DNA of 64,000 nt from Nitrospiraceae bacterium UBA2600 (GTDB lineage Bacteria; Nitrospirota; Thermodesulfovibrionia; Thermodesulfovibrionales; Thermodesulfovibrionaceae): positions 22,632-86,631 of the forward strand of contig DDKK01000031.1 in the NCBI GenBank assembly GCA_002339325.1, in the 5' to 3' direction. This document shows positions 2,077 through 63,823 of the stretch, in pieces. The position numbers and the translations under genes are program-made. The notes beneath the pieces are model-generated. The model was not told the DNA's origin. It was given only the letters and a program-made list of their open reading frames with translations, and made no database searches. Position 1 is the first letter of the stretch; each line of letters starts with the position of its first letter.

Positions 2077-4565
2077 CCTTTAACTCTCTTACCAACAATG
2101 TAAGCTTGGCCAAGAGATATGCAGGCATCGTTGCTGGGAACATTTACGTGATAAAGAGGTTTTATGCCAAGTTTTTTTAAGGCTTTTATGGTTTCCCTTA
2201 TCAAATAGGCATTCTGGAACACTCCTCCACTTAAGCCAACTGCATCAAAGCCAAATTTTGCTCTGAAATGCTCTGTGAGTTCGAGGATTATTTTTATAAT
2301 TGTGTTGTGAAATTTCCATGAAATAAAGGAGATTCCTCGCTTACGCTCAGAATGACAAATCGACTTGGCTTCAGATTTTAAAAAATCCCTTACAATCTCT
2401 CTAATCATTAGCTTGTAGTCTATAACTAAAGCCTCTCCCTCATTGGAATTCACTAATTCAAAGGGGTAGCAGTCCCTCTCAGAGAACTCCCTACCCTCCT
2501 CTATTAGACTTTCAAGGGCTACTGCTGCCTCTGCTTCATGGGTGTTGTAATGGCATAATCCAATCAGGGAAGAGACACCATCAAAAAGTCTTCCCATACC
2601 TGAAGAAAGAGGGCTAAATTGAGAAAGTCTCTTTATTTTAAGTATTTGCCTGATTTTTTCTTCTGAAACTACTTTATAAAGAGGCAGTCTCATTATCAAA
2701 TCCATATCCTCACCGAAAGCATCGTCAATCAAAGAAAGAGCTATTCTTGAACATTCTTTTATAGCATTCTCACCTCCTGGTAAGCTGACAGGTCTTAGAT
2801 GGGCAAGTCTCTGAAAATCCTTCAAAGTGCAGTATAAAAACTCACTTCCCCAAATTGTGCCGTCTGTTCCGTATCCTGTGCCATCAAAGGCAATTCCGAA
2901 AAGCTCATCCAGTCCATGCTCTGCCATTAAGGATGCAATATGACAGTAATGATGCTGAAGAGCAAAAGAAGGAATGCCTCTTTTTTCAGCATACTCCTTT
3001 GCCCAAGCTGTTGAAAAATACAAGGGATGAAGGTCATGCCCAACTGCCGATGGCTCTGTTCGATAAACGGCTTTGAGATTGTTTAAAACCTCCTCATAAA
3101 ACTCTATTGTTTCAAGATTTTCCATATCACCTATGTGCTGGCTCATTATGGCAGAGTCTGCTTTTATAAGCGTAAAAGTATTCTTCAAGTCAGCACCAGC
3201 ACCCATAACATCGGGCAACTCCTCTTTCAATTGTATAGCCTTCGGAACAAATCCCCTTGCCCTTCTTATGAAATAGATTTTGCCTTCAAGCTCTCTTACA
3301 ACAGAGTCATCAACTCTCATAAATATATCTCTGTTGTGTATGAGAAAAGCATCTGCCACATTGCTGAGTTTTTCAAAGGCCTCTTCATTCTTTGTAATAA
3401 TAGGCTCTTCAGAGATGTTTCCACTTGTCATAACAAGGGCATCAAAGTTAGGCTGAAGACTGAAGTCCGAGGTCCGAAGGGCTGAGTTATCCTTGTAAGG
3501 CTGCGTAGTATCTGTTTTACTGTCATTCCGAGGAGCGTTAGCGACGAGGAATCCCCTCCTACCCTCCTCTGTCATTCCGAGGAGTGAAAACGACGAGGAA
3601 TCTCCTACTTTAGCTGGATAATAAAACAGCAAATAATGAAGAGGTGTGTACGGCAACATAAAGCCAAGATAGGCATTCTTAGGTGCTAATGCCTCTGGTA
3701 AATTGCACTGGGGCTTTTTTCTTAATAGCACTATAGGACGCATTGGAGAAGTAAGAATTTTTCTTTCTTCATCGCTTACAAGGCAGAATTTTTCAATAGC
3801 CTCAACGGAGGGAGACATGAGTGCAAAGGGTTTATTGCTTCTTTTTTTTCTCTTCCGCAATTCTTTAACTGCCTCTTCATTTCTTGCATCACAGCAGAGA
3901 TGAAAACCTCCGAGTCCTCTTATTGCCAAAATCTTGCCTTCTTTTATGAGCCTAATGGCTTCTGGAATTGGATTTTCAATTTCAGTTAAAGCACTACCTT
4001 CCTTTATAAAAAGCCTTACCTGAGGACCACAAACTGGGCATGCATTGGGCTGAGCATGAAATCTTCTGTTACTTGGGTCTTTGTATTCACTGAGGCATTC
4101 AGGACACATATTAAACACAGCCATTGTTGTATTAGGTCTGTCATAGGGAACTTTCATGGTAATTGTGTATCGGGGACCGCAGTTTGTGCAGTTTATGAAG
4201 GGATAGAGATATCTTCTGTCTGTAGGGGTAAAAAGCTCTCTCAGACAGTCTTCACATATTGACACATCCTCTGAAACATGTGTAAACCCTGCTTCATCAA
4301 TGCTTTTAATAATTTCGAAGGTTTTATAATTATTCGGTGGAAGTTCAGTTTTTTCAATTGAGTAAATCTTAGCAAGCGGAGGAGGATTGTTTTGAAGTTT
4401 ACTAATAAACTCTTCAACCCTTTCACCCTCAACCTCAATTGTCAAACCTTTTGAGGTATTTGTAACAAATCCTTTTAAATTAAGATTTTGTGCAAGGTTG
4501 TAAACAAATGGTCTGAAGCCTACTCCCTGAACAACTCCCTTAACTTCAATATGAAGGCGTTTCAT
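2073..4565 (-). CDS. hypF: [NiFe]-hydrogenase maturation carbamoyltransferase HypF, with two repeat-derived in-frame insertions
   Basis: GVVQGVGFRPF acylphosphatase, CxxC zinc fingers, GLGGFHL, RRARG, GDLHP, QHHYCH, FDGTGYG, SGGVFQN, NDACISLGQ. Confidence 0.97.
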   Translation of the reverse strand: MKRLHIEVKGVVQGVGFRPFVYNLAQNLNLKGFVTNTSKGLTIEVEGERVEEFISKLQNNPPPLAKIYSIEKTELPPNNYKTFEIIKSIDEAGFTHVSEDVSICEDCLRELFTPTDRRYLYPFINCTNCGPRYTITMKVPYDRPNTTMAVFNMCPECLSEYKDPSNRRFHAQPNACPVCGPQVRLFIKEGSALTEIENPIPEAIRLIKEGKILAIRGLGGFHLCCDARNEEAVKELRKRKKRSNKPFALMSPSVEAIEKFCLVSDEERKILTSPMRPIVLLRKKPQCNLPEALAPKNAYLGFMLPYTPLHYLLFYYPAKVGDSSSFSLLGMTEEGRRGFLVANAPRNDSKTDTTQPYKDNSALRTSDFSLQPNFDALVMTSGNISEEPIITKNEEAFEKLSNVADAFLIHNRDIFMRVDDSVVRELEGKIYFIRRARGFVPKAIQLKEELPDVMGAGADLKNTFTLIKADSAIMSQHIGDMENLETIEFYEEVLNNLKAVYRTEPSAVGHDLHPLYFSTAWAKEYAEKRGIPSFALQHHYCHIASLMAEHGLDELFGIAFDGTGYGTDGTIWGSEFLYCTLKDFQRLAHLRPVSLPGGENAIKECSRIALSLIDDAFGEDMDLIMRLPLYKVVSEEKIRQILKIKRLSQFSPLSSGMGRLFDGVSSLIGLCHYNTHEAEAAVALESLIEEGREFSERDCYPFELVNSNEGEALVIDYKLMIREIVRDFLKSEAKSICHSERKRGISFISWKFHNTIIKIILELTEHFRAKFGFDAVGLSGGVFQNAYLIRETIKALKKLGIKPLYHVNVPSNDACISLGQAYIVGKRVKG
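2326..2360 (-). repeat. Dispersed palindromic element copy inside hypF (reads ICHSERKRGIS)
   Basis: Minus strand ATTTGTCATTCTGAGC-GTAAGCGAG-GAATCTCCTT; first 16 and last 10 nt are identical to 62274-62309. Confidence 0.85.
3451..3486. repeat. Degenerate heptamer tandem repeat inside hypF
   Basis: GGCTGAA-GACTGAA-GTCCGAG-GTCCGAA-G-GGCTGAG. Confidence 0.6.
3521..3606 (+). repeat. Two direct copies (49-bp period) of the TGTCATTC...GAATC element inside hypF
   Basis: 3521-3553 TGTCATTCCGAGGAGCGTTAGCGACGAGGAATC; 3570-3602 TGTCATTCCGAGGAGTGAAAACGACGAGGAATC. Confidence 0.9.
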
Positions 4566-58302: not shown

Positions 58303-58625
58303 AAATCAGAAAGCTTACAAGAAGGTCTTTTCTAAAATTAGCAGGTGCTGGAATTATCAGCCTTTCCTTTACAAAGCCATCTTTTGCCGGTGATACAGCG
58401 GAGAAAAACTTTTTTGAGACAAAGGTCGGAAAAGAAAGACTTAAACTCATAAAGGCAAGACAGTCCGGGCAGTATAAGGATGATGTTATATCAAGAGAAA
58501 AATTCAAAATGGCCGCATCCCATGAAAACCCGATGATAAAAAGGTTTTACTCTGAGTTTGCTCATCATCCTTTAAGTGAAGTAAGTGAAGCATTGTTGCA
58601 TACGCATTACAAGGCAAGGGTATAG
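58299..58625 (+). CDS. hydB: [FeFe]-hydrogenase small subunit with Tat signal
   Basis: LTRRSFLK twin-arginine motif; SHENPMIKRFY..HPL...LLHTHY. Confidence 0.9.
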   Translation: MKIRKLTRRSFLKLAGAGIISLSFTKPSFAGDTAEKNFFETKVGKERLKLIKARQSGQYKDDVISREKFKMAASHENPMIKRFYSEFAHHPLSEVSEALLHTHYKARV

Positions 58626-58653
58626 TATTAGCCCGGGCTTAAAGGAGTTTAAA

Positions 58654-58935
58654 ATGGTGGTTTATTATAGTCTCGGCAATAGAAAATATTGGTTTACAAC
58701 AATTGAAAGGCTAATCCAAATCGCAGAAGTTCTCTCAAAGAAAAGCTATCTTCTTCATAACACTGAGGCTGTAAAGACTACCTATAATGATTGGTTCATT
58801 CTTGATGAAAACTACATAAGCAAAGTAAGCGAAATAATTGAAGAATGCGCAAGCGAGATTAAAGATGAGGAGCTTTTATGTGACCTCATGGCTTTGAAAG
58901 AAGTTTTTGACGGCGGAAGCGTAGTTTTCGGATAA
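58654..58935 (+). CDS. Hypothetical 93-aa protein in the hydrogenase operon
   Basis: AAGGAG SD at 58642 and ATG at 58654 (MVVYYSLG...); same strand as neighbours. Confidence 0.65.
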   Translation: MVVYYSLGNRKYWFTTIERLIQIAEVLSKKSYLLHNTEAVKTTYNDWFILDENYISKVSEIIEECASEIKDEELLCDLMALKEVFDGGSVVFG

Positions 58936-59025: not shown

Positions 59026-59286
59026 ATGAATAGAAAGATTGGAATTGTTGGAATAATCGTAGCTGAAAGAAATAAAAATGCTCCTTTAGTAAACCAAATC
59101 CTCTCTGAGCATGCAGAGATAATTCTTGCCAGAATGGGAATACCTCAAAAGGAGACAGACACTGGCTTTATCTCACTTTTTGTAGAAGGAAACACAGACC
59201 GAATAGGCTCTCTTACAGGAAAGCTTGGAATGATAAAAGGTGTAACTGTAAAAAGCCTTCTTATCTCTGAAAAGGAGAAGAAATGA
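59026..59286 (+). CDS. TM1266-family putative iron-only hydrogenase system regulator
   Basis: IGIVGIIV, VNQILSEHAEIILARMGIP, LTGKLGMIKGVTVK; context. Confidence 0.85.
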   Translation: MNRKIGIVGIIVAERNKNAPLVNQILSEHAEIILARMGIPQKETDTGFISLFVEGNTDRIGSLTGKLGMIKGVTVKSLLISEKEKK

Positions 59287-60701
59287 TACGCATAGAGAGG
59301 GACTCTCTTGGTGAGCTTTCTATTCCGAAGGATGCTTACTACGGCATTCATGCATTAAGAGCAAAGGAAAACTTTTCTGTAACGGGACAACCACCTCACA
59401 GGGAGCTCATATGGGCTATGGCTATTGTTAAGAAAGCATGTGCATGGGTTAACAGAGAGATTGGAATGCTTGAGGATAACAAGGCAGACTCAATTCTTAA
59501 AGCCTGCGATGAGCTGGCAGTAGGTAACTTAGATGGACAGATTATCGTTGATGCTCTTTCAGGTGGAGCAGGCACAACAATTAATATGAATATTAACGAG
59601 GTTATTGCCAACAGAGCCCTTGAGCTTATGGGATTTGAAAAGGGTAGCTACGATGTAATTCATCCTCTCTTTCACATAAATCTAAATCAGTCAACGAACG
59701 ATGTTTTCCCCACAGCTGTTAAAACTGCCATTGTAAGGCTTCTGAGAGAGCTCGTAGATGAGGTTGCTTTACTTCAGGGTGAGTTTCAAAAGAAAGAAAA
59801 GGAGTATGCAAAAATTCTTAAGGTAGGAAGAACTGAACTTCAGGATGCTGTTCCAGTTACAGTTGGGCAGGAGTTTTCTGCCTGGGCAGAGGCTTTAAAC
59901 AGAGACTGGTGGAGGCTGAATAAGGCAGTAGAAAGGGTTCGTCAGGTCAATCTCGGTGGAACTGCTGTAGGCACAGGACTTAACTGTCCCAAGATTTTCA
60001 TTGATATGGCAATAGAGAAACTTCGGGAATTTACAGGGCTTCCTCTTGCAAAGGCGGAGAATCTCTTTGAGGCAACTCAGAATACAGATACATTTTCAGA
60101 GGCATCGGGATATCTTAAAACTTTAGCTTCAGACCTTATAAAAATTGCTTCAGATTTAAGGTTCTTAAGCTCTGGGCCAAAAGCAGGAATAGGTGAGTTA
60201 AGGCTTCCTGCTGTTCAGGTTGGCTCATCAATAATGCCTGGAAAGGTAAATCCCGTTATTCCTGAGATGGTTACACAGGTTGGAATAAAAGTGATTGCAT
60301 CAGACCATGCAGTAAGCTTTGCCTGTAGCATGGGGAATCTTGAGCTTAACCCGTTTTTACCACTTGTAGCACACGAACTTATTGGTTCTTTAAAGATGCT
60401 TAAGAGCTGTTCAACACTTTTTAGGGAGAGATGTATCTCAGGAATAACCGTTGATGAAGCAAGATGTAGAGAGCTTTTTGATAAGAGTTCCTGTATCATA
60501 ACTGCCTTTTCTCCCTATCTTGGCTATGAAACCTGTGCAGAGATATACAAAGAGGCAGTAAGCAAAGGCAGAAAAGTTGAAGAAATCCTGATTGAGAGAG
60601 GATTTTTCACAAAGGAAGAGATTGAGAGCATAACTCAACCACAGGAATTAACAACTCCCGGCTTTGCCGGAATTAAACATTTAAGGAGGCTTTTAAAATG
60701 A
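59283..60701 (+). CDS. aspA: Aspartate ammonia-lyase
   Basis: RIERDSLGE, GGAGTT.NMN.NEV, NQSTNDVFPT, GRTELQDA, GSSIMPGKVNPV. Confidence 0.92.
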   Translation: MIRIERDSLGELSIPKDAYYGIHALRAKENFSVTGQPPHRELIWAMAIVKKACAWVNREIGMLEDNKADSILKACDELAVGNLDGQIIVDALSGGAGTTINMNINEVIANRALELMGFEKGSYDVIHPLFHINLNQSTNDVFPTAVKTAIVRLLRELVDEVALLQGEFQKKEKEYAKILKVGRTELQDAVPVTVGQEFSAWAEALNRDWWRLNKAVERVRQVNLGGTAVGTGLNCPKIFIDMAIEKLREFTGLPLAKAENLFEATQNTDTFSEASGYLKTLASDLIKIASDLRFLSSGPKAGIGELRLPAVQVGSSIMPGKVNPVIPEMVTQVGIKVIASDHAVSFACSMGNLELNPFLPLVAHELIGSLKMLKSCSTLFRERCISGITVDEARCRELFDKSSCIITAFSPYLGYETCAEIYKEAVSKGRKVEEILIERGFFTKEEIESITQPQELTTPGFAGIKHLRRLLK

Positions 60702-62203
60702 AAGCTGTTTTAGCAAAAGAGGAAAAAAACTGGATAAACAGCGTGATTAAGGAAGAAGAGATAGAGAAATATATGGAAGACGGAAGGGACTTCATAAATG
60801 ATGAGGAAATCTGGGAGAAACTAAAGCAAAATCAGAATCCAGAACCATCCCGAATATGGGATATACTTCAGAAATCCCTTTCAATTGAAACACTTCTTCC
60901 CGATGAGACAGCAGCTTTGCTTAATCTTAAAGACCCGGAACTCTGGCAAGAGGTTTTTGATGTAGCAGCAAAGGTAAAGAAAAAGGTTTATGACAACAGA
61001 ATTGTCACATTCGCACCTCTTTACTGCGGAAATCTATGTGTGAATAACTGCGTTTACTGTGGTTTCAGAAGAGACAATCATGTGATTAAAAGAAAGGTGC
61101 TAACTCTTGAAGAAGTAAAAAGAGAGGCAGAGGTGCTTGCTGGTGAGATAGGACATAAAAGACTTATTGTTGTTTACGGTGAGCATCCTGCAACTGGAGC
61201 TCATTACATAAGAGACACGATAGAAACTATTTACTCTGTCAAGGTAATGACAAAGAACGGATACGGTCAGATAAGAAGGGTTAATGTGAATGCCGCACCA
61301 ATGAGCATAGATGAGTTAAAGATGCTTAAGGAAGTTGGAATCGGCACATATCAGGTTTTTCAGGAGACTTATCATCATGACACATACGCAAAGCTTCATC
61401 CTAAGGGAACAATTAAACATCACTATCAGTGGAGGCTTTACTGTCATCACAGAGCACTTGAAGCGGGAGTTGATGATGTGGCATTGGGAGTGCTTTTTGG
61501 ACTTTATGACTGGAGATTTGAGGTTATGGGGTTACTTTATCATGCAAGGGAGCTTGAGAAACGGTTCGGAATTGGTCCACATACAATTTCTTTCCCACGG
61601 CTTGAGCCTGCAGCAAACACTCCCTTTGTGCAGGAGACAAGATATAAAGTTTCCGATGAGGATTTCAAAAAAATCATTGCAGTGATAAGACTTTCTGTTC
61701 CCTACACTGGTATGATTCTTACTGCCCGAGAGCCTGCTCACATAAGAAGAGAAATCATTGCTTCAGGAATGATAACCCAGACAGATGCATCCACAAAAAT
61801 AGGAATAGGAGCATACTCTGACAGATACACAGAACAGGAGCTTGAGCGACAGCAGTTTGAGATTGGAGACTCCCGTAGCCTTGACGAAGTAATCAGAGAA
61901 CTTGCAGAGATGGGCTTTATTACAAGCTTTTGCACAGCCGGTTATAGATGTGGAAGAACAGGAGATAGAATAATGAGTTTGCTTAAATCAGGAAAGGAGG
62001 CGATATTTTGTAAACTCAATGCAGTGCTTACTTTCAGAGAATGGCTTGATGACTTTGCCTCGGAACAGACAAAGGAAGCAGGAGAGAAAGTTATTCAGAA
62101 GGAGCTTGACGAGTTAAAGGCAAAAGTGCCTCATAAAGTTTACAACAAGCTCATTGAATACTACGGGAGGATTAAAAATGGAGAAAGAGACATATATTTC
62201 TAA
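60698..62203 (+). CDS. hydG: [FeFe]-hydrogenase maturase HydG
   Basis: FAPLYCGNLCVNNCVYCGF, FQETYH, GPHTISFPR, SFCTAGYRCGRTG. Confidence 0.96.
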   Translation: MKAVLAKEEKNWINSVIKEEEIEKYMEDGRDFINDEEIWEKLKQNQNPEPSRIWDILQKSLSIETLLPDETAALLNLKDPELWQEVFDVAAKVKKKVYDNRIVTFAPLYCGNLCVNNCVYCGFRRDNHVIKRKVLTLEEVKREAEVLAGEIGHKRLIVVYGEHPATGAHYIRDTIETIYSVKVMTKNGYGQIRRVNVNAAPMSIDELKMLKEVGIGTYQVFQETYHHDTYAKLHPKGTIKHHYQWRLYCHHRALEAGVDDVALGVLFGLYDWRFEVMGLLYHARELEKRFGIGPHTISFPRLEPAANTPFVQETRYKVSDEDFKKIIAVIRLSVPYTGMILTAREPAHIRREIIASGMITQTDASTKIGIGAYSDRYTEQELERQQFEIGDSRSLDEVIRELAEMGFITSFCTAGYRCGRTGDRIMSLLKSGKEAIFCKLNAVLTFREWLDDFASEQTKEAGEKVIQKELDELKAKVPHKVYNKLIEYYGRIKNGERDIYF

Positions 62204-62555
62204 GGAGACTCTTCATTCTGAGCCATCCCCTTTCTGTCACTCTGAGCCTTCCTTCAGTCATTCTGAACCATCCATTTGTCATTCTGAGCCGAAGGCTAAG
62301 AATCTCCTTCTTGAATTAAACAAAATAGCAGAGTTTGTCAAAGAAAAATACAATACCCACATTTGGTTTGTAGAGATAATGGGAAAGAGACACTCATACA
62401 TAGCCGGACACAAAGAAGACTCATTTCTTCCACCAGAGTTAATTTATATCAATGACAGATACGCTGCTGTCTCCAATGAATGGGAGAGAATCACCGAGAA
62501 AGATGAAATCATATCAACCATAAAAATGCTGCTTTCAAAGGAGACAATCCCATGA
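62178..62555 (+). CDS. Hypothetical 125-aa protein with N-terminal (C)HSEP repeat array
   Basis: GGAGG SD at 62166, ATG 62178; overlaps hydG end and hydF start (ATGA). Confidence 0.7.
   Translation: MEKETYISKETLHSEPSPFCHSEPSFSHSEPSICHSEPKAKNLLLELNKIAEFVKEKYNTHIWFVEIMGKRHSYIAGHKEDSFLPPELIYINDRYAAVSNEWERITEKDEIISTIKMLLSKETIP
62211..62309 (+). repeat. Tandem array of TGTCATTCTGAGCC units ending in one complete element
   Basis: Units at 62211, 62235, 62256, 62277 (periods 24/21/21); the last continues GAAGGCTAAGAATCTCCTT. Confidence 0.9.
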
Positions 62556-63823
62556 GTGTGCCAAAAAGTCAGAGACTTCATATAGCTCTCTTTGGAAGGA
62601 CAAATGCAGGAAAATCATCCCTTATAAACGCTCTCACTGGTCAGTCTCTCGCGATTGTATCTGATGTTCCCGGAACAACTACAGACCCTGTAGTAAAAGC
62701 CATGGAGATTCTTCCTCTTGGACCGGTTGTTCTTATTGATACAGCAGGAATTGATGATGTGGGAAAACTTGGTGAATTAAGAAAAAAGAAATCCTATGAG
62801 GTTTTTGATAAGACAGACCTTGTTTTACTTGTAATTGACCCTGAAAAAGGGGTTGGAGAGTTTGAAAGGGAGATAGTGAAAAAAGCAGAAGAAACAGGGA
62901 CTCCCTTGATTTATGTTGTAAATAAAATAGATATCCATCCAGAAGCTAAGAAGTATGAGTTGCCTGAACCTAAGGTTTTAGTAAGTGCTCTGACAGCTGA
63001 AGGCATAGATGAGCTTAAACAGGCTATAGTAAACAATGCTCCAAAGGACTGGACCCTTCCTACCGTCTTGGGAGACTTGATAAATCCCGGAGATGTAGTA
63101 ATATGCGTAATTCCCGTTGACAAGGCTGCACCCAAGGGAAGACTTATACTGCCCCAGCAGATTGTAATAAGAGACATTATTGACAATGAGGCAATCGCCA
63201 TAGTTGTAAAAGAAAGAGAGCTTATTCATGCCCTAAGTTTACTCAATAAAAGACCTTCACTTGTAGTTACTGATGCCTCTGTTTACAATAAAGTTGCAGC
63301 AGATACACCCGCAGACATAAGGCTTACATCATTTTCAATTCTTTTTGCCCGTTACAAAGGAGATTTGCAGACACTTGTTGAGGGTGTTCTAACTGTAAAA
63401 AAACTAAAGCCAGGAGATAAAGTGCTCATAGCAGAGGCATGCACCCATCATCCTGTGGAGGATGACATTGGAAGAGTAAAAATTCCCCGTTGGCTAAGGG
63501 CACAGGTTGGAGGTGAGCTTGAGATTGAGGTAAAAGCTGGTGGTGGTCCACTTCCTGATAATCTCACTGAATACAGTCTCATTGTTCATTGTGGTGCCTG
63601 CATGCTCAATCGAAAGGAGATGCTTAGTAGAATTCTACAGGCTAAGCGGGCTGGTGTTCCTATTGTCAATTATGGTGTGATAATGGCTCACATTCACGGA
63701 GTTCTTCATAGGGCACTTTCTCCTTTTCCACACCTTCAGGGAATGATAGATGAAGCAGAAAAGGAGGTAAAAGCAGAGATAGAAATTTTAAAGAAAATAA
63801 CAGAAAGAGCAATTTATGAATAG
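62552..63823 (+). CDS. hydF: [FeFe]-hydrogenase maturation GTPase HydF
   Basis: GRTNAGKSS, DTAG, NKID, LILPQ, EACTHH, HCGACM. Confidence 0.96.
   Translation: MSVPKSQRLHIALFGRTNAGKSSLINALTGQSLAIVSDVPGTTTDPVVKAMEILPLGPVVLIDTAGIDDVGKLGELRKKKSYEVFDKTDLVLLVIDPEKGVGEFEREIVKKAEETGTPLIYVVNKIDIHPEAKKYELPEPKVLVSALTAEGIDELKQAIVNNAPKDWTLPTVLGDLINPGDVVICVIPVDKAAPKGRLILPQQIVIRDIIDNEAIAIVVKERELIHALSLLNKRPSLVVTDASVYNKVAADTPADIRLTSFSILFARYKGDLQTLVEGVLTVKKLKPGDKVLIAEACTHHPVEDDIGRVKIPRWLRAQVGGELEIEVKAGGGPLPDNLTEYSLIVHCGACMLNRKEMLSRILQAKRAGVPIVNYGVIMAHIHGVLHRALSPFPHLQGMIDEAEKEVKAEIEILKKITERAIYE

Follow-up and report, generated by a model that had tools for sequence, protein, structure and literature searches.

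Known companions of hydG and the gene under study

Synthesis of the H-cluster is usually described as needing only the maturases HydE, HydF and HydG together with housekeeping helpers (glycine-cleavage proteins, ammonia-lyases and NfuA). In this work we describe a small gene, here called X, which lies between hydG and hydF in a 64,000-nucleotide (nt) stretch of Nitrospiraceae bacterium UBA2600. This whole stretch, positions 22632-86631 of contig C7 in a genome of 1.9 Mb with 36.5% G+C, is referred to as the window. The name X is used both for the HydG-coupled small protein of 125 amino acids (aa) and for its family, and the tandem repeat carried by the gene is called the (C)HSEP array after the peptide that it encodes.

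The nearest named analogue by position is HydX (SO_3924) of Shewanella oneidensis, a soluble protein of unknown function that is encoded right after hydG in hydGXEF and is routinely co-cloned as hydGX (PMC2991362, PMC4694547, bioRxiv 10.64898/2026.10.15.759383). Like HydX, protein X is encoded immediately 3' of hydG in an [FeFe]-hydrogenase maturation operon. However, HydX has 23.9 kDa and the core of X only about 10 kDa, and the two are set apart both by this size and by the fact that searches with the core of X return only proteins of 75-121 aa, which speaks against a homology detectable at that level. The aspartate ammonia-lyase AspA, which is an ammonia donor (PMC11736057), and a TM1266-type regulator resemble X in being recurrent genes of hyd maturation clusters other than hydE, hydF and hydG, and both are present in the window. 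Pfam or NCBIfam models exist for these two proteins, and their linkage is to the whole operon or to hydF, whereas X has no model and keeps a fixed 26-nt overlap with hydG. A literature search, which left most papers in subscription journals outside its reach, found no description of the X family or of the HydG clade with the CX5CX19C motif reported below, and for small genes after hydG it returned only Shewanella hydX and aspA.

X is a real gene of a HydG-coupled family, and we consider it rather probable that its product is a partner of HydG in H-cluster synthesis and that the (C)HSEP array is a tolerated passenger. The features of the locus that are needed for this argument are the following.

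60698..62203, + strand: hydG of the X-linked clade (TIGR03955 at 1.1e-142 and 475.8 bits, cut-off 312; clade support 100/100)
62165..62170, + strand: Shine-Dalgarno-like GGGAGG, 7 nt 5' of the X ATG and inside hydG Gly-Arg codons (direct reading)
62178..62555, + strand: gene X, 125 aa (open reading frame (ORF) with 19 close homologues, 52 distant-homologue clusters and a confident AlphaFold2 fold)
62178..62203, + strand: 26-nt overlap between the X start (MEKETYIS) and the hydG 3' end (NGERDIYF and stop codon, which ends at 62203)
62552..62555, + strand: ATGA, made up of the overlapping hydF start and X stop codons (sequence reading)
62552..63823, + strand: hydF (TIGR03918 at 6.5e-172)

Linkage of X to hydG

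One genome for each of 185,579 species was scanned with a peptide pattern derived solely from X, and 46 loci were returned. At all 45 public-genome loci where tblastn detected X, the gene was found directly 3' of hydG and on the same strand; at the 46th (L050) X remained under the tblastn threshold and its motif is present after hydG. The gene that follows X varies and can be hydF, hydE, aspA or something unrecognised. What X is linked to is hydG itself rather than hydF or hydE.

The junction of the two genes is also constant, since the distance from an ATG or GTG to the end of the hydG stop codon is exactly 26 nt at 44 of 49 loci and also in the window. The start of X within this overlap reads M-E/G/A-K/R-E/G-T across the NGERD of HydG, and in the window the protein begins MEKETYISKETLHSEPSPFCHSEPSFSHSEPSICHSEPKAKNLLLEL (translation of ORF 62178-62555, + strand). 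Sequences comparable to GGGAGG, namely AGGAGG or AGAGGA, are found 5' of homologues. Given a ribosome-binding site encoded by hydG and a start 26 nt inside it, X would be made by translational coupling, and this in turn would make it most likely a stoichiometric partner of HydG in H-cluster synthesis. We infer both the coupling and a physical or functional partnership from this gene arrangement.

The family was found in Thermodesulfovibrio, Thermodesulfobacterium, Caldanaerobacter, Tepidanaerobacteraceae, Syntrophales, Desulfobacteraceae, Atribacterota (Caldatribacterium), Omnitrophota, Planctomycetota, WOR-3, TA06, Aerophobetes, Lentisphaerae and Spirochaetia, and among the archaea in Archaeoglobaceae and Hadarchaeota. 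Within Thermodesulfovibrio, the genus to which homologues assign the window, X occurs in 8 of 21 genomes, which are the same eight that carry hydG (full-length in seven, truncated by a contig end in the eighth), and it adjoins hydG in every one of them. Nevertheless X accompanies only a minority of hydG genes: it was present in 4 of the 38 hydG-bearing genomes among 40 sampled Thermoanaerobacteria, and in a Desulfobacterota sample of 151 genomes it was present in 3 of the 28 with hydG.

The X-linked HydG clade

The HydG of the window passes TIGR03955, and it has the radical S-adenosylmethionine (SAM) motif CX3CX2C (C114-X3-C118-X2-C121) and the conserved C-terminal domain. The canonical C-terminal CX2CX22C is replaced by CX5CX19C:

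61931..62011, + strand: HydG auxiliary-cluster motif C412-X5-C418-X19-C438 (FCTAGYRCGRTG...FC)

Where canonical HydG (TIGR03955; PDB 4WCX, 4RTB) has the second Cys of the motif, HydGs of this clade have Gly or Asp, with a Cys three residues further on. All 56 distinct X-linked HydGs read FCTA[GD]YRCGRTG-X-FC, that is CX5CX19C, whereas 14 of the 18 sampled X-less HydGs read CT[AG]CYR...X22...C, the canonical CX2CX22C of the crystallised TiHydG (PDB 4WCX). Of the other four X-less proteins, L084 carries the variant motif and three were not matched by the search pattern. The X-linked clade scores 457-498 bits with TIGR03955, against 514-688 bits for X-less HydGs of Thermoanaerobacteria. Maximum-likelihood analysis places the X-linked HydGs together in a single clade (support 100/100), which holds both Bacteria and Archaea. 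Its sister (95/89) is a pair of HydGs with the intermediate motifs CTACYRC and CTAGYRAGRTGC.

Just after the stop codon of these two intermediate-motif HydGs, at L058 (G013:C40) and L068 (G040:C1), we observed a divergent X-like ORF (VYFA[EK]S.G[KR]R.H..[AT]G), and the X family is therefore wider than the searches detect. In X of Atribacterota and related metagenome-assembled genomes there is an extra N-terminal segment (xFExWL...), which brings the protein to 110-135 aa and in one case to 191 aa (loci L027, L029, L031, L032, L035, L036, L038-L042, L044, L048 and L049). The HydGs of these loci, mostly CTADYRC, form a subclade of their own. This suggests that X and HydG diverged together.

Genome G043 has a canonical HydG that lacks X and also a variant one that is accompanied by X. 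In the window genome and in the representative genome of Caldanaerobacter subterraneus the variant is the only HydG, and it is therefore presumably the working maturase of these two organisms. The HydG of Thermoanaerobacter tengcongensis (now C. subterraneus) has been characterised alone in vitro (review PMC10114646), and to judge from the genome of the species the protein studied would be of the X-linked type.

It is conceivable, though we hold it with much reserve, that a distinct lineage of HydG has X as an obligate small subunit and that in this lineage a Cys ligand of the auxiliary [4Fe-4S] cluster has been relocated (CX5CX19C). Such a subunit would bind the C-terminal domain and gate either the loading of the dangler iron or the hand-off of the Fe(Cys)(CO)2(CN) synthon to HydE, and the hydG-X unit would have spread across domains by horizontal transfer. 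The link between X and the shifted cluster ligand is speculative.

The core of X: sequence family and predicted fold

By sequence, X is a member of an undescribed family of small proteins of about 85-115 aa. What its members share is the core, of about 84-87 aa, located 3' of the array.

62292..62552, + strand: conserved core, helix-four strands-helix, with W63, E66, G69, R71, S73 and G77 invariant (alignments; AlphaFold2)

An exhaustive phmmer search with the core against 1.84 billion representative proteins gave, at E<1e-3, 52 clusters, all of 75-121 aa, in addition to the 19 close homologues. The similarity covers the whole core, with E-values of 1e-48 to 1e-4, and includes the hairpin motif W-x2-E-x2-G-x-R-x-S-x3-G. 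Pfam and NCBIfam scans of X and 48-53 homologues produced scattered chance matches only; nothing significant was obtained by PHROGs and PADLOC scans of the window X and two homologues, nor by a profile search with X against the PDB sequences. The labels 'DUF5678' (UniRef) and '6-phosphofructokinase' (JGI) attached to two homologues could not be reproduced and look spurious. The suspicion of the initial annotation that the core is an unrecognised protein belonging with the hyd genes, with unlinked homologues as the observation that would speak against it, agrees with these scans and with the tight hydG linkage reported above, which also holds at genus level.

The AlphaFold2 model of the core, built from a 50-sequence alignment (predicted local distance difference test (pLDDT) 91.3, predicted template modelling score 0.80), consists of a helix, four strands and a helix. 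All six invariant residues map to the first beta-hairpin, a position that suggests either a contact surface with another protein or a binding site for a small ligand. Since Cys is absent from the core and none of its His is conserved, the core would not itself be a cluster or metal ligand.

Foldseek of the core against the PDB found nothing at E<=0.001 (best E 0.03). The top weak matches were GAF domains (4mmn, 4mn7; TMq 0.64-0.66), MglB (1j3w, 3t1r) and Rag roadblock domains (about 0.6) and the PAS domain of DosP. The predicted core shares with Roadblock/LC7 (MglB) and GAF/PAS domains a two-layer alpha/beta arrangement (TMq 0.55-0.66), but it is much shorter, is without their central helix or ligand pocket, and has 6-12% identity to them.

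These matches raise two alternatives. The core could be a minimal GAF/PAS-like sensor that tunes HydG allosterically in response to, for example, tyrosine, cysteine or a by-product of HydG, and we judge this unlikely. The closest structures of this kind are GAF-type free Met-R-sulfoxide reductases (4mmn, 4mn7), DosP, DosS and CodY GAF or PAS domains are also matched, and from their conservation E66, R71 and S73 could bind the carboxylate and amine of an amino acid; on the other hand the E-values are weak (0.03-0.5), a domain of 85 aa lacks most of the GAF pocket, and ligand binding is conjectural. The core could also be a Roadblock/LC7-like regulator of the HydF GTPase, a platform for GTPase activation or nucleotide exchange as MglB is for MglA, instead of a partner of HydG. 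Although the MglB and Rag GTPase roadblock matches (TMq about 0.6) and the overlap of the X stop with the hydF start in the window would fit a HydF regulator, no match reaches E<=0.001, GAF and PAS domains score as well, and the model does not contain the central helix of the roadblock fold. Moreover, at many loci (Caldanaerobacter, Caldatribacterium, Omnitrophota) X follows hydG with hydE next, or with no hydF within the 4-kb flanks, so that we regard this proposal as quite improbable.

Origin of the (C)HSEP array

62208..62294, + strand: tandem array of four units (62208, 62232, 62253, 62274) encoding TLHSEPSPF-CHSEPSFS-HSEPSI-CHSEP
62277..62307, + strand: complete palindromic element TGTCATTCTGAGCC-GAAG-GCTAAGAATCTCC, formed by the last array unit and its 3' arm

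The initial annotation had read in this gene four (C)HSEP units at frame-preserving periods and had derived them from a palindromic element, and both points are borne out. The units are spaced 24, 21 and 21 nt, each spacing keeping the reading frame, and residues 12-42 of X come from them. The motif CAYTCTGARCC occurs four times in the window, always within the X ORF, where 0.06 occurrences are expected and none of 100 shuffles reached four; Tandem Repeats Finder reports a period of 21 with 3.6 copies and a score of 80 at 62213-62290.

The last unit, which has both arms, is a complete representative of a palindromic family dispersed in the genome: 62277-62307 reads TGTCATTCTGAGCCGAAGGCTAAGAATCTCC. 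The family has the consensus TGTCATTC[CT]GAG..GA[GA]GAATCTCC, with pairing 5' and 3' arms and a variable loop, and about 30 copies genome-wide. Three copies (C7:70, C19:72 and C47:3946) have the same loop as the element in gene X, GAGCCGAAGGCGAGGAATCTCC; compared with that element their stem shows a compensatory exchange of C:G to T:A, and one further base is different. Further copies lie in the window at 2333-2356 (- strand), 3521-3556 (+) and 3570-3605 (+), and in some cases they are arranged in tandem. The remaining array units are copies of the 5' arm, and the unit CCATCCATTTGTCATTCTGAG resembles the 5' leader and arm of the element, ACCTCCATCTGTCATTCCGAG. On this unit-by-unit correspondence the array is derived from the dispersed palindromic element. 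Its content of four His and two Cys in 34 residues arises because that is how GTCATTCTGAGCC reads in the frame of gene X; the 5' arm reads (C)HSEP in this frame, a second frame is open and the third has TGA stops. Duplication of the 5' arm is also seen in intergenic copies, at C19:95/72 (23 nt apart) and C4:59221/59238 (17 nt apart), where the spacing is not a multiple of three.

A regulatory RNA structure was considered as the main explanation and rejected, the hairpin at 62277-62307 being modest (-8.1 kcal/mol, z = -1.67) and the array as a whole having no unusual structure (z = -1.29). Some copies of the element are located less than 100 nt from contig ends (C7:70, C19:72/95), and the element may help to break the assembly there.

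The palindromic element was not matched to any named repeat family. It is similar to REP/BIME sequences in being a short hairpin with conserved arms, in its roughly 30 copies which are at times in tandem, and in the IS110-family transposase within a relative's copy that is described below. It differs from them in that it lies within a coding sequence with an open frame, and in that multiplication, by 21- or 24-nt units, has affected its 5' arm alone. Typical targets of IS110-family elements include REP-type sequences. At locus L090 of a close relative (GCA_000482825.1, AXWU01000023.1, L090:1-330, at a contig end) CATTCTGAGCCGAAGG follows the end of an IS110-family transposase gene (PF02371) at a distance of about 25 nt, which places the insertion sequence (IS) inside the array or palindrome. 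The IS severs the 5' part of gene X, and hydG is not on that contig end. A transposase of this type was looked for in the genome of the window and was not found.

Variation of the array and the question of a metal-binding tail

Among close relatives the array changes length by whole units, and every allele is in frame.

0 units (footprint GAGCCGAAAGCAAAGAAT), 98 aa: L001/P0003, core 86% identical
2 units, 110 aa: G020 and several metagenome contigs
4 units, 125 aa: the window, with the identical protein on 24 contigs
5 units, 133 aa: P0001, P0002
6 units, 140 aa: P0076, P0078
about 10 units (including three identical ones of 24 nt), 168 aa: L089 (GCA_027925485.1; L089:1171-1677)

The array-less L001 was examined as a possible ancestral state. 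It retains a footprint of the 3' part of the element (GAGCCGAAAGCAAAGAAT) and is nested among array-bearing lineages in the HydG tree, so that a secondary contraction is the more likely origin of this allele. In the diverged Thermodesulfovibrio lineages L059, L060 and L053 the arrays are decayed and the motif is lost, there is no array in Thermodesulfovibrio L061 and L054-L057, and the array is missing from most X orthologues. The linker that holds it varies in length across the whole family. In the array-less L056 (G002) the linker GGCTGAAGGCTGAGAAGGG (LKAEK) stands about where the window reads CCGAAGGCTAAGAAT (PKAKN), and its likeness to the 3' arm of the element is two codons out of register in the protein alignment; this resemblance may be due to chance, or the 3' arm may be older than the array.

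Between near-identical strains the array undergoes the changes H to R, P to S, E to D, and C to S or R. By a rough estimate it has about 8% substitutions against 1-3% in hydG, the core and hydF. AlphaFold2 gives pLDDT <50 for residues 9-37 of X, a segment which is hence predicted to be disordered.

It had been proposed that the array is an adaptive His- and Cys-rich tail that binds or buffers metal, supplying or holding Fe for maturation. The composition of the repeat within a metallocofactor operon, its persistence and, in certain strains, its expansion to about 10 units without ever leaving the frame, and the requirement of the HydG dangler iron for an iron supplier (PMC12501116) make the idea understandable. 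Nevertheless almost all members of the family lack the array, close relatives such as L001 and L061 included, it has decayed in the L059, L060 and L053 lineages, and its His, Cys, Glu and Pro all vary between alleles. Conservation of His and Cys among orthologues, as would be expected of a metal-binding tail of the HypB or SlyD type, was not found. In addition, these residues follow directly from the DNA element in that frame, and intergenic copies show the same duplication of the 5' arm. Taken with the predicted disorder and a core free of Cys and conserved His, this makes a functional metal-binding tail improbable, and the array is probably a separate, recent and near-neutral insert.

Translation through the array

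Ahead of residue 117 the frame contains an ATG, GTG or TTG at two places only, M1 and M68. Conserved core residues begin at I50, and I50, A51, V54, K55, Y58 and W63 all precede M68, which in the AlphaFold2 model falls within strand 1, after helix 1. Since helix 1 and these conserved residues lie before M68, translation would start at M1 and read through the array; no canonical start exists between the array and the conserved core, and the array is probably translated. No Shine-Dalgarno sequence was seen ahead of M68 on reading the sequence. The peptide ETLHSEPSPFCHSEPSFSHSEPSICHSEPK is a tryptic peptide derived from the array.

In the assemblies of two relatives the NCBI gene models comprise only 58 aa and begin at M68. 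Frameshifted arrays were considered as the cause and discarded, for L089 is open over 168 aa and L090 is interrupted by the IS. For L089 NCBI annotates the 58-aa product that begins at the internal Met and also, antisense to the array, an ORF of 58 aa that is probably spurious. That translation begins only after the array, at M68 as in these models, or that the gene is decaying, with the array as an untranslated leader, is very improbable: the 58-aa annotations and the IS at the 5' end of gene X in one of the two relatives speak for it, but M68 lies inside strand 1, past helix 1 and the six conserved residues, and lacks a Shine-Dalgarno sequence, the L089 frame is open across about 10 units, and the in-gene units have 21 or 24 nt against 17 and 23 nt for the intergenic arm duplicates.

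A model for X and the points that weigh against it

Gene X is passed on together with the hydG of a single clade of this radical-SAM maturase, and we hypothesize that it acts as the translationally coupled partner proposed above. A palindromic element would later have entered the disordered, length-variable linker that joins the N-terminus, where the gene overlaps hydG, to helix 1, and it would be read there in one of the two frames that contain no stop codon. The 5' arm of the element, of 21-24 nt, would then have grown and shrunk by slippage or unequal recombination, giving alleles with 0 to about 10 units.

Several observations weigh against this reading of a HydG partner with a passenger array. 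The conservation of MEKET is not independent evidence for the start site, because the overlapping NGERD of HydG forces it. Likewise slippage by whole units of 21 or 24 nt preserves the frame automatically, and retention of the frame is weak evidence for selection. The variant-motif HydG of L084/G186 is a member of the clade and has no X. The interruption of gene X by the IS in L090 may mean that X is dispensable and, if the T. tengcongensis HydG studied in vitro is of the X-linked type, X is not needed for the basic tyrosine-lyase chemistry. Finally, a disordered peptide with His and Cys may bind metal incidentally.

Neighbouring genes

The gene order in the window is hydA, a hydB with Tat signal, a 116-aa ORF, the TM1266-type regulator, aspA, hydG, X, hydF and hydE.

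59026-59286: TM1266-type ACT-like regulator
59283-60701: aspartate ammonia-lyase (AspA)

The 116-aa ORF (58585-58935, + strand), between hydB and the TM1266-type regulator, overlaps the 3' end of hydB. It has no credible Pfam or NCBIfam match, the best having E = 0.01, below the cut-off.

Significance

The array offers a natural example of a dispersed palindromic element that has colonised a disordered protein linker and become a coding minisatellite, and it misleads annotation, as the NCBI models of the relatives, reduced to 58 aa, illustrate. In itself it is of modest interest, and the HydG-coupled family together with its HydG clade is the more valuable result. Surveys of gene neighbourhoods by Pfam domain would miss X. 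The T. tengcongensis HydG studied in vitro probably belongs to the X-linked clade and was examined without its partner. X is a candidate lineage-specific maturation factor of many bacterial phyla and two archaeal lineages, accompanying a HydG with a shifted cluster ligand. If X were indeed an obligate subunit of this HydG, it would be a fourth dedicated protein of H-cluster maturation in thermophilic and subsurface anaerobes, including Archaeoglobaceae and Hadarchaeota.

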